Part shown: positions 7,501 to 13,500 of the stretch, in pieces | Position numbering within the stretch: position 1 is the stretch's first letter | Layout of the letters: the number at the start of each line of letters is the position of its first letter | Position numbers: made by a program | Assembly (NCBI GenBank): GCA_963810935.1 | Contig: CAWEPK010000010.1 | Coordinates: 1 to 64,000, forward strand | Reading direction: 5' to 3' | Source of the DNA: an uncultured delta proteobacterium | GTDB taxonomy: Bacteria; Desulfobacterota; Syntrophorhabdia; Syntrophorhabdales; WCHB1-27 | DNA: 64,000 bases

Positions 7501-10500
7501 GTATCTACGATGATTGCAGGCTTGCCGTAGGCAAGGCCCACAATCATGTTGGCCGACTTGCGCCCTATGCCTTTTACCGTAGCGAGCGTATCGATGTCGT
7601 CGGGGACCCGCCCGCCGAACCTCTCCCCGATCTCGCCCGCTATGTTCTTGAGGCTGCGCGCCTTGTTATGGTAAAAGCCCGTCTCCTTAATGTCCTCTTC
7701 CAGCTCCGGCACAGGTGCGTTGATATAGTCCTGCGCCTTCTTATACTTTTTGAAGAGGCGCTCAGTCACGCGGTTGACGCGCTCGTCGGTGCACTGGGCG
7801 GAGAGGACGGTAGCGACGGTCAGCTCAAGCGGGTTCGACCAGTTAAGCTCTACACGGGGTTTGCCGTGCATGGCTTTCAGCCGCTTTATAATGGCGTTAA
7901 TCTCTTTTGCCATTTCTCACCTCGCTGAATAGGTCTTTCATCCCTTTGGCGTCCCTGGTGTTGGCTACATCATTTGCCGTGAGCCAGCCTTTTCTTGCAA
8001 TCCCTATCCCGTAGAAAAGCTCCGCCAGCCCGGCCGCATGGTGGGCATCCGGGTCGATGGAAATAGCGACGCCCTTCGCCGCCGCCTCGGGCAGGTACCG
8101 CCAGTCGATATCAAGGCGGTACGGGCTCGCGTTCAGCTCGATAACAACGTGAAGGCGCGCCGCTTCCTCTAAGATGCGCGACATGTCCACCTTGTAGCCG
8201 TCCCTGGCCAGAAGGAGCCTTCCCGTAGGATGGCCGAGGATTGTCGTGTAGGGGTTCTCCATAGCCTTCACGATGCGTGCTTCCATCTCTTCCTGACCCA
8301 TCGAGAAGCCCGAACGTACGGACGCCACTACGAAGTCGAAGCCTTCGAGCAGCTCGTCGTCGTAGTCGAGGCTCCCGTCGGCCAGTATGTCGCTTTCTAT
8401 GCCCTTGAAGAAGGTGAAGCCTTCATTTTCCGCGTTGAACTCGTCGATCGCTTCCCACTGCCTCAGCACGTCGTCAGGCTTCAGGCCCCCTGCGTAATAT
8501 GCGCTTTTCGAATGGTCGCAGATGCCGACGTAAGAGAGGTCGAGGTTGCGCGCGGCGTCGCAGATGGCGCGCAGGTCGGACGAGCCGTCGCTCATGCTCG
8601 TGTGCACGTGGAGCGTGCCTTTAAGGTCGGCCGTCTCGACAAGGCGGGGCAGCGTTCCCGATGCTGCGGCCGCGATCTCGCCCCTGTCCTCGCGCAGCTC
8701 CGGGGGGACGTAGGAGAGCCCGAGGAACTCATAGATGTCCACCTCCGCTGCGACTAAAGGGCCGGCCTGCCTGCCAGATTTGGAGAGGCCCTGCTCGTTC
8801 GGGACAAAGCCTTTTCGTTCTGCCGGCTCGCAGAGGCGCGACGTGTGGGCGGCGCTCCCTGTAAAATAAAGGACGGCGAAAGGGAAGGAACGCGCCTCCA
8901 CGACGGTCATGCGCGCCTCTACCCCCGTTACGAGCATGCAGGCGATGCGCCCGCCGTACCCTGTCCGCACCTCTTCTATTTCCGGAAAGGAGGCCAGGTG
9001 GGCCGATATCTCCGCCGGGTCGCCTCCGCCGACTACGATATCGACGTTTCTCACTACCTCTTTCTTGCGCCTTATGCTGCCGCAGGCTTCAACGAGGCCG
9101 CCCGGCACAATCCGGCCGAGGCGCTCTTTAAGCCTCATCGCCAGGGGATAGACGTCCACAAAAAGGTGTTCTCCCTTGTGGCGCCTCAGGAATTCGATGC
9201 CCTTGACGATCCTTTCCTGCGTCTTGGCGCCGAAGCGGAAAAGGCTGACGAGGCGGTTCTCCTTGCAGGCGTACTCCAGCTCTCCCAGGGAAGAGACGCC
9301 CAGTTTCTCGAACAGGAGCCTTATCTTGCCCGGCCCGAGGTTGGGTACCTGCAGCAGACTCCAGGAGCGTAGGCGGGATCTTCCTCGCCAGCTCCTCGTA
9401 AAAGGCCATCCTGCCCGTATCGTGATATTCGGTGATGTTGGCGGAAAGGGTCGCCCCGATGCCTTTGATCGTCTTTAGGCGCCCTTCCATTATGAGTGAA
9501 TCGAGGTCATCGAGGCCCGCGACCACCTTCGCCGCGTTGTGGTAGGCTTTTGCTCTGAAGGGGTTTTCTCCTTCGATCTCCAGCAGGGCCGCGATCTCCT
9601 CCAGAATGGCTGGAAGCGATCTGAGCTGCATCAGTTATTATCATACAGGGGGCGAAAAGATGTCAATAAAGCAATAACCCATTTTGAGTCTCAAAACGGG
9701 TTATTGCTTGCCGGCAGGGCCGCCCCGAGGCGGCGGCAGGTTAGTAGTACCTCCCGTTCGCTTCCTCGCCGATGATGGCGAAGTTTGCTTTTGACGTCGC
9801 TAACGGGTCGGATTTCCATGAGAAGCCTATCGAGGGTACCTCGACTGCTGCTTCGAGTTGGGCTGTCGCCTTGAAGCCCTCGATCCGGAACTGCTTTGCC
9901 GGGTCGGCGTATGAAATCTTCTCGCCTGTCGCTTTCCAGACTATCGTTATGTCCATCCTGGCGGGTGTTGTCTGTGCCTGGAATGCAGGCCACGCAGGCT
10001 GGTCTATTATTCCTATGCCTTTCATTTGAAGGATCGCGGTCTTTCCGTCATCGCTCCAGGTGATTCCGCCTTCCGGCACCGGTACTACCCAGTAAAGACC
10101 GCAGAATCCCACCGGGGGATGAAAGTCGTGCATCTGATTGGCCGGGGCAACCTGCCCCTTGAAAAGGGTGAGTCACAGGTGGGCGAAGGTCCCCTTGCGG
10201 GCTGCGCGGCCGGTGAAATACCCGCCTTGCATGAAAGAATTGTCGGTGGTCGGGCTTCCGAAGGGGATGCGGTTCCCTTTATTGTCCGTCCCCATGCCCG
10301 TAAAGTCGCTGCACCTGGCGACCTTCCCCTTGAAATGATAGATGCTGGAAGGCTCGTTGCCCGGCCCGGCCGGCTGATTATGACTGCCGTTCTTGTCAAG
10401 CCACGGGATGGGATAGGGGTACGTGCTGCCGTCGTACACGAATTGGCCTGACCCTTCCGAGGCAGCCGCAGCCTTTGCCGACCCGGGCAAAGATAGAGCG

Positions 10501-13500
10501 GATGATAGGGCGAGGGCCAGCCCCGAAGCAAGGAAACCGCGTCTGCCGCAAGCGGGCATCGCGGGCGAATCTCTCCCTGAATCCATGGGTACCTCCTGCT
10601 CGATTATGGTTTGTCCCTGTGAAACTTAAGTCCCTGTCCGCCCGTTCGCAATGACCGCCGCGATCATGGCGTGAAATGGAGAGATCTGTCCGGGAAGCCG
10701 GATGCCGTGTGGCAGGTAAGTGCGCGCCCGGCAGGATTTGAACCTGCGGCCTTCGGCTCCGGAGGCCGACGCTCTATCCAGCTGAGCCACGGGCGCAATA
10801 GGTAAAGATTATAACTCAGAATACCCGTAAAAACCACTTCACGATCCTTTTAATATAAAAGGTGCGGCGCCGCGGCGAAAGCACTTAGGACCGAGGGGGC
10901 CGGAGGAAATCTCGATGGATTTCGCGTTGCTTTTCGACGAAGCGAGCCGGAGCATACGTTTTGTGTATGTGAGGACTCGCGCCCGAGAAAACGACGCGAA
11001 AGACGCGAGATTAACCCGGTCCCCTCGGCCCGCGCCCAAGGAAAAGGATTGACAGCTTATTCCAAGGCTGATAGCTTTAAGGAATTGCGAACCGCTAGGG
11101 AGGGCCATTTTATGGATGGAAAGGTAGCACGGATTACGGAACTCGTCGCCGGCTCCGCCAAGAGCTTCGATGACGCGGTTACAGTAGGTTTCAAAAGGGC
11201 CTCGAAGACATTGAGGGGCATATCGGGGATCAAAGTCAAGGACTGGCGGGCAAAGGTCGAGGACGGGAAGATCGTGGAATACAGGGTTACCCTGGAAGTC
11301 GTTTTTATACTGGAGAGTTGACGCGCAGGCCCGCATCGGCCGGGCGCCCTTTCAGGTGCCACAGGAGAAGGCGCGCATAATAACCGTACCTTCTCCTGAC
11401 CGACTTTCCAAACAGCACAAAAGGCAATAGCGTAGCAGGCAGAAGGAACATGACGGCCTTGCACAGCCGCACGAACGCGAAGGTTGCGCAGTAAGGCCGG
11501 GAATGGTATTTCTGCATAAACGCGTGAAGAGAGATTGCGTACTCCATCCTGCCCCGGACCCAGGATTGCGACACGGTCCTGCCCTGCAGATGGACGAGCC
11601 TGGATGCGGGAAGGAAAACCACCCGGAAGCCGCTCCTTGACGCGCGCAGGCAGAGGTCCGTCTCCTCGAGGAAGAAGAAGAACCTCTCGTCAAAGCCCCC
11701 CGCGACATCGAAAACACGGCGCCTCACCATCAGGGCTGCGCCTATGAGGGACGCCACATCGGTCGGCCCGGTCAGTCCTTCGCCCTTTGTCCTGAACCTG
11801 CCGGAAAAGAGCGCGAGCAAAGCCCCGGGCAAGAGCTCCAATGCGAGGCTCGGTATGGGGGCAAAGGAACGCTGCGGCCTTCCGTCTTCGTAGACGAGCT
11901 GCGGCGCGGCAATGCCTATCGATCCATCCTGCCGCATGTGGTCCAGCAGCTTGATTATCTCGCCCTCGATCAGGCGCGTATCCGAATTGAGAAACAGGAC
12001 AAACTCGCCGGAGGACCGCCGTAAACCAATATTTGCCGCGGCTGCAAACCCCCTGTTTTCCTGACTGCCTGCATAAGAGAAATGCGGGAAGCGGGAGGCC
12101 ACCATTGCTTCCGTCCCGTCGGTCGAGCCGTTGTCGACGACGATCACTTCCCGCAACGCGGCCTGAAGCGGCCTATCCGCTTCTATGGACGCGAGCAGGC
12201 CGGCGACCAAGTCGCACGTATTCCTGGTTATGATGATTATCGAAAGCACCGGTATATCCTACCCTACACACCAAAGACAGCGCAAGGGTGGCCGGCGCTA
12301 TACCGCCAGTTGCGGTAACTCGTCCTTTTTCCGGTAGACCAGCGCCTGGCAAATAGCCACCAGGCCGTCGCTGTCCTCCACCGTGATATAGTACGTGGCC
12401 GTCTTCCTGCCCTTGTTGGTCTCCGTCGATTTCGCGCGCAGCAGGCTGTTTTTCTTTGCCGGTTTAATGTAGGTGACGTTCATATTGAGGGCAACCGCCG
12501 TAGTGCCGTGGCTGTTCGACGATATCTCGAACGCCTCGTCGATCAGGGAGAAGACGGCTCCGCCGTGCGCAGTGCCGTGTATGTTGTCCATCGACTCCTT
12601 ATACTCCATCTCGCACAGGGCGTAGCCGTCGTCCACGTCTACCAGCCTTATCTCCATGAGCTGTGCGAAAGGCTCCCCCGACACGATCTTCCTGAATGCC
12701 TGTTTCCTTGCATCTTCCATTATCGGACCCCCCTGTACAAGAATGGTATTATTGCTTCCTGCCCGGCGCCAGCGACGCAAAAATTCCGCAGCCGCAGAGA
12801 ACGGCGAAAACGGAGAAAACGACGCCTACACTTTTTAAAAAGGCATGATAGCGGTCCGGTGTTATCTGGACCTGGCCTACATAGAGAGAAAAAATGAGCA
12901 TCGAAATGCCGATGCTGAACGAGTTACCCAGGAGCCGCATCGTCTGGGAGACGCCCGAGGCCACCCCGTATAAGCGCTCGTCCACCGAACTCATTGTCGC
13001 GTTAGTGTTGGGAGAGGAGAAAAGCGCGAAGCCGAGGCCGTGGAGGGCCAGCGTGCCGACGACCAGCCAGAGCGGCGTTTCCTCGCCGAGGAATGCGAAC
13101 AATATCAGCCCGACGACGGTACATGCCATGCCGACGGAGGCCACGTTCCTGGGGTCTCTCCTGTCGGATAACCTGCCGGCGTACGGAGAAAAGACGGCCT
13201 GCACAACGGGCTGCGCAATCAGGATCAGGCCCGCAGTCCTGGGGTTCAGGTGCTTGGTGTATTGCAGGTAGAGGCTCATGAGGAAGCCTATGGCATAGGT
13301 CGCCGCGTAGTTGATGAATGCAGCCAGGTTCGACAGCACGAAGACGCGGTTATACCGAAACAGCCGCAAGTCCAGCAAAGGAAATTCCCTGTGTTTCTCC
13401 CATTTAACAAAAACAGCCATGCAGGCGATGCCGGCGCCAAGCCCCATGAACCCCTCCTTCGCCGGCAGCAAGCGGAAACCGTAGAGGACAACGCCCAGGG

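Follow-up and report, generated by a model that had tools for sequence, protein, structure and literature searches.

The minus-strand segment 10586..9741 of the window (the whole 64,000-nucleotide stretch of contig CAWEPK010000010.1 analysed here, from an uncultured delta proteobacterium) is very probably one gene, in which an internal TGA at codon 138 specifies selenocysteine (Sec) and whose product is an exported beta-barrel protein, the question of function being left aside in this identification. The gene would found a protein family distinct from all those with which it was compared. The features concerned are as follows.

9741..10586, minus strand: whole gene, 281 codons plus a TAA stop, with a single in-frame TGA (frame reading; same architecture in 100/102 relatives' loci)
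10592..10596, minus strand: Shine-Dalgarno-like GGAGG, 5 nt ahead of the ATG at 10586 (direct sequence reading)
10470..10586, minus strand: Tat signal peptide, residues 1-39, with G-RR-GFLA, a hydrophobic stretch and AKA, presumably cleaved after A39 (sequence reading, motif in relatives)
10341..10433, minus strand: N-terminal extension of the mature protein, conserved and rich in proline, residues 52-82, YPYPIPWLDKNGSHNQ...EPS (nearly invariant columns; pLDDT 91-95)
9744..10340, minus strand: predicted closed antiparallel beta-barrel domain, residues 83-281, across the TGA (AlphaFold model)
10173..10175, minus strand: TGA, codon 138, most likely read as Sec (site codon in relatives, coding on both sides, metagenome coverage)
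10144..10158, minus strand: SECIS-like stem-loop GGGGCA-GGU-UGCCCC (or 5 bp with loop AGGUU), starting 14 nt after the UGA (folding, covariation, bSECIS criteria)
10128..10130, minus strand: His153 codon, invariant in 93 aligned members, on the strand after the Sec-bearing strand (alignment, predicted structure)
9669..9709, minus strand: perfect 19-bp hairpin with a U-rich tract behind it, some 32 nt past the stop, likely an intrinsic terminator (folding against shuffles)

One reading frame across an internal TGA

The ORFs 10173..10586 (137 aa) and 9741..10133 (130 aa) share a frame on the minus strand, and reading through both gives 281 residues with codon 138 (10175..10173), where gene finders cut, as the sole TGA. 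The genome-wide survey's note had already joined the two calls into one gene, and this is borne out: a good ribosome-binding site lies upstream of the first ORF, while direct sequence reading finds no GGAGG-like motif ahead of the downstream call, which begins at M152. The terminator-like hairpin (z -4.54, equalled by 0/200 shuffles), which a simple scan had not listed, would make the gene monocistronic. In four soil-metagenome runs of a single study, one of them perhaps the source sample, contigs span 10173..10175 with zero differences, so that the TGA is not an assembly slip.

The related-locus search returned 222 relatives, fewer than the 279 reported earlier, and the best 80 of these were examined. 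All 80 carry TGA at the site, extending the 79/79 previously counted; the same codon occurs in L102, in 7/9 further loci, in 11/11 loci of a second subfamily and in L126, which brings the total to 100 of 102 distinct relatives' loci in addition to the window. These TGA-bearing loci come from at least seven phylum-level groups, in agreement with the wide phyletic spread claimed before. The family can thus be called widespread across phyla but not within them, since in two phyla roughly 1% of the genomes have it (2/401 and 6/401 sampled).

Third codon positions account for 81662 of 127536 differences upstream of the TGA and for 49914 of 71334 downstream of it; judged by this pattern, both sides are coding, the downstream part in the same frame. 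The first potential restart codon lies anywhere from 1 to 74 codons past the TGA across genes and is therefore not conserved. TGA is a normal stop in these organisms, since it closes 39 of 88 family genes as well as 17 of the window's 63 long frames. It is true that gene callers and public databases, as noted before, treat the two halves as distinct hypothetical proteins, and that selB looks broken in the assembly, which might suggest that the TGA is a real stop, either between two small genes or in a gene inactivated by nonsense mutation. We consider this extremely improbable given the retention of the codon in so many loci and phyla, the coding signal downstream, the lack of a conserved restart codon or ribosome-binding site, and the confident prediction of a single barrel that requires both halves.

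The earlier report that no Cys form was seen is not borne out: Cys occupies the site in two records, P0261 and P0271, both known solely from the protein database. Other members have Gly (P0008 = L104), Ser (P0122 = L107) or Glu (P0123), so that some apparently manage without Sec; in one selA-positive genome the sole copy carries Gly (GGx), a single base change from TGA. The description of the family as almost obligately Sec-containing nevertheless stands, because Cys forms are rare. The protein database yielded 150 matches, mostly halves, with W at the site in full-length JGI calls, the same pattern as the survey had seen.

The window's genome encodes tRNA-Sec at three sites, together with selA and a pair of selD genes, one of them with a TGA, as well as two FdhA-like genes that each contain a single TGA. 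Its selB is present only as three pieces in three frames; since the same assembly contains further frame breaks, for example in PolX, this breakage may reflect sequencing error. selA was found above cut-off in 47 of 50 carrier genomes and in 5/5 more. However, 296 of 401 sampled Acidobacteriota genomes (74%) also have selA, so that its co-occurrence with the family represents a modest enrichment and weak evidence.

The stem-loop downstream of the UGA

A SECIS-like hairpin does follow the TGA, as had been proposed, but in the window it has the loop AGGUU at 14 nt, not AGUUG at 17 nt; the latter loop is the form of 11 relatives. The published bSECIS model asks for a loop of 3-9 nt, a stem of 4-16 bp, a G among the first two loop positions, a UGA-to-loop distance of 16-37 nt and an MFE <= -7.5 (PMC13188914). 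With its 5-6 bp stem, AGGUU loop, UGA-to-loop distance of 19-20 nt and MFE of -10.9, the window's hairpin agrees with 4/4 constraints of this model. Among 81 sequences, at least five of the six stem pairs form in 75 and the MFE is <= -7.5 in 80. Loop position 2 is G in 81/81 despite being a third codon position, and position 3 is G or U in all of them; the SelB-type loop consensus N-G-[G/U]-N-N is matched by every one of the 81 sequences.

The six-pair helix is paired in 93.5% of cells, and two of its pairs alternate between A-U and G-C (counts 37/28 and 36/27). Observed pairing, covariation score and cells changed on both sides were each reached by 0/500 shuffles, whereas two of the five covariation measures did not exceed the shuffles (319/500 and 141/500); the structure under test was itself derived from the very sequences tested. 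Controls slid along the alignment were 34-64% paired, as compared with 88.8% at the position of the hairpin. The covariation is stronger than in the earlier claim of a conserved hairpin with G-C/G-U exchange, while the window's own hairpin does not surpass shuffled sequence in stability (z +0.68; 156/200 shuffles fold equally well). In the second subfamily, a hairpin occurs at the same place in 12/12 loci, with a different local sequence.

On the strength of these sequence comparisons, the UGA at codon 138 is most likely decoded as Sec, which would be inserted by SelB and tRNA-Sec under the guidance of the stem-loop 14 nt downstream. Alternatively, the codon may be read as a standard residue (Trp, Cys, Gly or Arg) through a reassigned code or hairpin-stimulated suppression, with no involvement of selenium. 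Such read-through would account for the W in the JGI calls and accord with a Gly form only one base change away, and the hairpin alone does not separate Sec insertion from stimulated read-through. It is nonetheless very unlikely in view of the regular use of TGA as a stop both in the family and in the window, the loop consensus, and the presence in the genome of Sec machinery and other TGA-bearing selenoprotein genes. Moreover, Cys, which commonly takes the place of Sec, is the one standard residue that recurs among site-spanning calls made without TGA.

Export signal and predicted barrel

The Tat signal described in the survey's note is supported: a [ST]RRx[FILM]L motif lies 37-49 residues ahead of PxPW in 86 of 88 genes, and tatC is present in the window's genome (215 bits, above cut-off). 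The window protein gave no match to the Tat-signal profiles PF10518 and TIGR01409 at E<=10, and relatives matched a profile below the cut-off (P0261 at E 5.9e-4 with 20.1 bits, the cut-off being 22.7; P0008 at E 0.18). The protein would thus be made in the cytoplasm with its signal and then exported by Tat in folded form.

AlphaFold predicts a single domain that spans the TGA, with strands on either side of residue 138 (pLDDT 94.8, pTM 0.90). The model is a closed beta-barrel, in line with the all-beta fold proposed earlier. Residues 52-82 have scant regular secondary structure yet are confidently modelled, and the mature protein of about 240 residues may be pictured as a barrel capped by this conserved proline-rich segment. 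Foldseek gave no match at E<=0.001, and nothing in the PDB matched the barrel specifically. In structural comparison, small barrels scored Z 7.6-9.1 (rmsd 3.9-5.7 over 128-142 residues, identity 4-10%) and none stands out. The matches include the outer-membrane proteins NspA (1p4t; Z 8.8, rmsd 3.9, 142 residues aligned), OmpW (2f1t; 8.4) and a Legionella porin (9.1), together with PagL and OmpA, while the soluble barrels of AttH (2ich; 7.6) and the C-terminal domains of the Diels-Alderases CghA (6kbc; 8.7) and Fsa2 (7e5t; 8.6) score alike. NspA, OmpW, AttH, CghA and Fsa2 have in common with the window protein an antiparallel meander barrel and a similar size, but none is a selenoprotein.

The prominence of NspA, OmpW, the porin, PagL and OmpA among the top structural matches, and the aromatic C-terminal residues of the window protein (RYY), would also suit an eight-stranded outer-membrane barrel in place of a soluble periplasmic one. 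We regard this as very improbable: Z scores of 8.4-9.1 are within the range that the tool gives for common arrangements, soluble barrels do equally well, and most relatives have 1-10 extra residues past YY. Furthermore, a Tat signal implies export of an already folded protein, unlike the route taken by outer-membrane barrels.

The window protein matched 0 Pfam and 0 NCBIfam families at E<=10, and none of 93 members scanned matched any domain family of either collection apart from the Tat signal, so that the earlier report of no fitting model, NCBI's selenoprotein models included, is upheld. None of the 119 selenoprotein families and subfamilies catalogued in a 2026 review (PMC13188914, Table 1) fits when compared by domain or motif. 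The family therefore appears to have been missed by current annotation and selenoprotein catalogues. A thioredoxin-fold or CxxU/UxxC redox selenoprotein was considered and rejected, since the motif FAHL-U-LTLF has no nearby Cys and the fold is an all-beta barrel. The GSU2204/MtrB-PioB-type selenoprotein (NF041027), a large outer-membrane barrel with CXXCH (PMC13188914), is similar in combining a beta-barrel with a predicted Sec; the window protein, however, has no NCBIfam match.

Possible function and relation to known selenoproteins

The motif TH(I/L)-U-LTLF, given earlier as invariant, characterizes the main subfamily and not the whole family: a more distant second subfamily, also Sec-containing, has F(G/A)F(V/I)-U-LD(L/V)(F/Y). 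Four residues, H153, D195, E275 and N277, are invariant in 93/93 aligned members. At least seven TGA-bearing members, in contrast, have S, A or N in place of Cys92. In the model, Sec138 would sit in a short break of a long barrel strand, with His153 on the next strand, although their closeness is inferred from strand order alone. Sec138 and His153, aided by Asp195, Glu275 and Asn277, may constitute the working centre.

Our best guess is that Sec138 and His153 form the core of either a redox or a metal centre, located in the periplasm. Of these two options we slightly favour, quite tentatively, a redox-active selenol that would act on some small oxidant or chalcogen compound in the periplasm. 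It is also conceivable, if rather unlikely, that the same Tat-exported selenoprotein binds a metal or metalloid, such as Cu, Ni, Hg or As, or some other cofactor acquired in the cytoplasm, serving as a periplasmic chaperone, sensor or metalloenzyme. The ligands would then be Sec138 and His153, joined in the main subfamily by His84, His136 and His156, and all four of these histidines near the site are indeed kept there at 90% or more. Proteins that fold around a cofactor ahead of their export typically use the Tat route. Several listed selenoprotein families bind metal (PMC13188914, Table 1). Nevertheless, the second subfamily retains only H153 (H84 is replaced by D, H136 by F and H156 by N), and no known metal-binding barrel stands out structurally. 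There are also no recurring neighbours for metal transport or resistance, with two P-type ATPases among 139 flanking ORFs. More generally, no neighbouring gene is conserved, the best neighbour cluster occurring in 10 of 81 loci (80 relatives and the window).

It is tempting to go further and imagine an almost obligately Sec-dependent periplasmic barrel enzyme of anoxic and peat-soil bacteria, in which Sec138 and His153 hold a cytoplasmically inserted metal or cofactor for a chemistry beyond the reach of Cys. This bolder proposal is improbable as it stands; it would explain the Tat route by the cytoplasmic insertion, and the rarity of Cys forms by the inability of Cys to support the chemistry. 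A precedent for a selenoprotein with a twin-arginine signal, exported in folded form, is the alpha subunit of periplasmic formate dehydrogenase (FdnG/FdhA). That protein is, however, a molybdopterin enzyme of about 1000 residues with the motif U-H-x-P, whereas the protein described here is a 240-residue barrel with no similarity to it in sequence or fold.

The in-frame UGA, consensus-type hairpin, Sec machinery (here with selB in pieces) and Sec/Cys pair are common to this family and the bacterial UGA/bSECIS selenoprotein families (PMC13188914). Cys forms are many in most of those families, in contrast to their great rarity here, and the present fold is not thioredoxin-like and has neither CxxU nor UxxC. 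Families with few Cys homologues are discarded by search methods that depend on Sec/Cys pairs, as stated in the deep-Sep paper, which is probably why this family is absent from the catalogues consulted. At least 100 species genomes carry the gene cut into two 'hypothetical proteins'; the carriers include Acidobacteriota, Nitrospirota, Desulfobacterota-type lineages, Verrucomicrobiota, Chloroflexota, Actinomycetota and Pseudomonadota. With Sec placed in a beta-barrel that lacks a redox CxxU and apparently resides outside the cytoplasm, the family may report a chemistry not yet tied to selenium. One of the carriers, Lichenibacterium minor RmlP026, is a cultured strain, which makes the prediction directly testable.

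A conserved gene interrupted by an in-frame TGA

The gene under study belongs to a real, conserved family, very probably of selenoproteins. Two minus-strand ORFs in the ORF listing, 10173..10586 (137 aa) and 9741..10133 (130 aa), share one frame, and translation of 10586..9741 with TGA read as selenocysteine (Sec, U) gives 281 residues followed by a TAA stop, the sole TGA being codon 138. The sequence GGAGG lies 5 nt upstream of the ATG; on direct reading, no GGAGG-like motif precedes M152, where the 130-aa downstream call starts. Contigs from four soil-metagenome runs (one study; one run possibly the source sample) cover the TGA without any difference. 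The features of this region are as follows.

10175..10173, minus strand: TGA codon 138, placed by translation
10722..10796: tRNA-Arg(CCG) gene, just upstream of the selenoprotein gene
9669-9709: perfect 19-bp inverted repeat with a 3-nt loop, then a U-rich tract, between the selenoprotein and PolX-like genes

The 19-bp hairpin, about 32 nt 3′ of the selenoprotein stop, was equalled in folding by 0/200 shuffles (z -4.54) and, with the U-rich tract, makes the gene look monocistronic; a simple terminator/promoter scan missed this hairpin and gave no entry for the selenoprotein gene. The PolX-like gene (helix-hairpin-helix N-terminus and PHP domain; 7897-9631, minus strand) consists of overlapping ORFs, 9631..9128 and 9159..7897, the first with a tail apparently out of frame; the split has its cause in a frameshift or in an indel of the assembly.

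When the best 80 of the 222 relatives found in species genomes with the read-through protein were aligned, the site was TGA in all 80 (a strict pattern located it in 71, a looser one in the other 9). The Gly-form database protein P0008, used as query, retrieved 10 loci, one of which duplicates L099; among the nine new ones the codon was TGA in seven, Gly in L104 and Ser in L107. A second, more distant subfamily (28-34% identity) has PIPGG where the main subfamily has PIPWLDKNGSHNQ, and F(G/A)F(V/I)-U-LD(L/V)(F/Y) at the site; TGA is present in its locus L102 (L125 encodes the same protein), in 11/11 additional loci and in L126. In total, TGA occupies the site in 100/102 distinct loci.

Two other readings of such a codon are that it is a sense codon of a reassigned code, or a stop between two separate genes. 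Both were weighed on 88 genes (the window's and those of 87 loci). Third codon positions hold 64% of pairwise differences over the 36 codons before the TGA (81662/127536) and 70% over the 22 codons from the HDFH motif after it (49914/71334). The distance from the TGA to the next in-frame ATG, GTG or TTG varies between 1 and 74 codons. TGA is moreover the terminal stop of 39/88 family genes and of 17/63 long frames of the window. Taken together, these figures rule out a reassigned code and argue against two separate genes.

The hairpin after UGA and the Sec machinery

The bacterial hairpin that guides reading of UGA as Sec (bSECIS) has, in the consensus published in PMC13188914 (section 5 and Fig. 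2 legend), a loop of 3-9 nt on a stem of 4-16 bp, a G within the loop's first two positions (N-G-[G/U]-N-N in most cases), a UGA-to-loop distance of 16-37 nt and an MFE <= -7.5. The window's hairpin falls within all four limits (4/4). In an alignment of the 54 nt from the TGA in 81 sequences, from which the tested structure was itself derived, stem columns 17-22 with 28-33 were paired in 93.5% of cells. At least five of the six stem pairs form in 75/81 sequences, and the MFE limit is passed by 80/81. G stands at loop base 2 in 81/81, although this is a third codon position, and loop base 3 is G or U in 81/81. Pair 17-33 is A-U in 37 and G-C in 28 sequences, and pair 21-29 is A-U in 36, G-C in 27 and U-A in 2. 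Both couple a non-synonymous position (Q/K versus R; V versus A) to a synonymous Pro/Gly wobble, so that protein constraint hardly explains them. The observed pairing, covariation score and doubly changed cells were matched by 0/500 shuffles, and slid controls reached 34-64% pairing as compared with 88.8%; the pairs with a double change and the further pair types were not above shuffles (319/500 and 141/500). Since the window's hairpin (-10.9 kcal/mol) is no more stable than its shuffles (z +0.68), the evidence for it is conservation and covariation, not stability. In the second subfamily, where other codons stand at these positions, a hairpin was present in 12/12 loci, starting about 13-17 nt past the UGA.

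The window's genome contains selA (569 bits), two selD genes, one carrying an in-frame TGA, a pair of FdhA-like genes, each with a single TGA, and three ARAGORN-confirmed tRNA-Sec matches at 71 bits with nearly identical scores:

C4:30323-30414: tRNA-Sec gene (L001)
C6:4921-5012: tRNA-Sec gene (L002)
C11:126664-126755: tRNA-Sec gene (L003)

Three tRNA-Sec genes in a 4-Mb MAG, the identity of the FdhA-like matches on contigs C7 and C10, and a contamination of 7% suggest duplicated contigs or strain variants. The matches to selB are three fragments, each in a different frame (194, 106 and 43 bits; C5:224288-226169; L009, L012 and L015), and do not make up a single open gene. Either sequencing error accounts for this, or selB is broken in a genome where several selenoprotein genes with TGA are retained; as the PolX-like gene is also split, assembly indels are suspected. 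Elsewhere, selA scored above cut-off in 47/50 carrier genomes (those of 50 of the 80 loci) and in 5/5 additional carriers, including Lichenibacterium minor and the Gly-form genome. In the phylum sample of the genome of locus L041, titled Candidatus Acidoferrales, selA is already found in 296/401 genomes, a tally that counts three unpublished ones (G499, G602 and G474); given this high base rate, its co-occurrence with the gene fits Sec decoding and is only mildly informative. Sec insertion in this family would follow an ordinary mechanism; unusual are its predicted fold and export route, as well as the almost complete lack of Cys forms.

Predicted fold and export, and possible function

The read-through protein had no match in Pfam, NCBIfam or PDB sequences, and a profile of 93 members (identical translations merged; L087, L090 and L100 left out by the motif filter) retrieved from PDB sequences at best titin, at E 0.62. 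None of the 119 families in Table 1 of PMC13188914 fits; of deep-Sep (PMC12013277) and BSepDB (PMC13326102), the comparison covers passages retrieved by term search. A literature search by peptide motif gave 0 papers, and one by keywords no account of a family of this kind. Within this comparison the family is apparently undescribed.

With the 93-sequence alignment, AlphaFold modelled residues 43-281 at pLDDT 94.8 and pTM 0.90; in the model a conserved N-terminal segment, for the most part irregular, precedes twelve strands. Residue 138 would occupy a two-residue break between predicted strands 128-136 and 139-142, and His153 the next strand (151-156). Foldseek returned no match at E<=0.001 for either model. 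An exhaustive structural aligner retrieved small closed barrels at Z 9.1 to 7.6, none standing out: the outer-membrane barrels porin III, NspA and OmpW and the soluble barrels CghA, Fsa2 and AttH scored comparably. The comparison came out alike for a shallow model made earlier. In the ESM Atlas, Gly-form P0008 gave top scores of 0.87 to unnamed clusters and 0.86 to DUF1838. Kinship with DUF1838 was dropped: PF08894 was found in 0/93 members, 0/41 genomes and no control genome, which left no sequences for a profile comparison.

A twin-arginine motif is present in 86/88 genes, the exceptions being one upstream frame that is too short and one cut contig, and the window's genome has tatC at C10:278622-279272; the Tat HMMs did not match the window's protein. 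A second tatC-like gene lies at 46205-46825 of the window (minus strand; 129 bits, just below the 132.7 cut-off).

Invariant in 93/93 members are P57, P59, F85, G87, G97, G99, H153, D195, E275, N277 and G278. Cys92 was considered as a general resolving partner and rejected, being S, A or N in at least 7 TGA-bearing members. There is no conserved partner gene either, the best neighbour cluster occurring in 10/81 loci (80 relatives and the window). The 139 flanking ORFs include ECF sigma/anti-sigma factors (4), DUF302 (4), AhpC/redoxin (3) and alpha/beta hydrolases (5), themes that are scattered and stem partly from closely related genomes. In view of the lack of a conserved neighbour, we commit ourselves only to a predicted exported barrel whose centre would be formed by Sec138 and His153. 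Of two possible roles, each less likely than not, a redox enzyme is slightly favoured over a metal or cofactor site.

Substitutions at the Sec site and spread of the family

A Sec/Cys pair is a classical hallmark of selenoproteins, and in this family it is rare. Among database proteins that span the site, JGI calls show W. Cys occurs in P0261 and P0271, both of the second subfamily and 48% identical to each other; it was seen in protein records, and searches of species genomes and of JGI metagenomes did not yield the corresponding DNA. The Gly of P0008 was confirmed in DNA and belongs to the sole copy in a selA-positive genome, and P0123 has Glu. P0122, the protein of L107, has Ser; since its MAG, titled WY3.bin97, also encodes a Sec form (L029), it is a paralogue, and a diverged one. 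In L107, Cys92 is also replaced by Ala and HDFHPP by HDLHPG, so that, judged from its sequence, it may be a non-catalytic or re-purposed copy.

According to record titles, carriers belong to Nitrospirota, Acidobacteriota, Syntrophorhabdales, Syntrophaceae, Desulfomonilaceae, Verrucomicrobiota, Actinomycetota and Chloroflexota (Limnocylindrales, Ktedonobacteraceae and Anaerolineales), in addition to one MAG of a betaproteobacterium and a cultured alphaproteobacterium, Lichenibacterium minor RmlP026. In the phyla sampled, few genomes carry the gene: profile searches found it in 2/401 genomes of the window's own phylum, the window's genome included, and in 6/401 of the phylum of L041's genome, taken as Acidobacteriota. 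Each match has exactly one TGA, and overlap with the other loci is possible. The isolate L. minor RmlP026 (L113, NZ_QYBB01000015.1) has selA and a TGA form, ALTHI-U-LTVF, and is the most practical carrier for experimental work.
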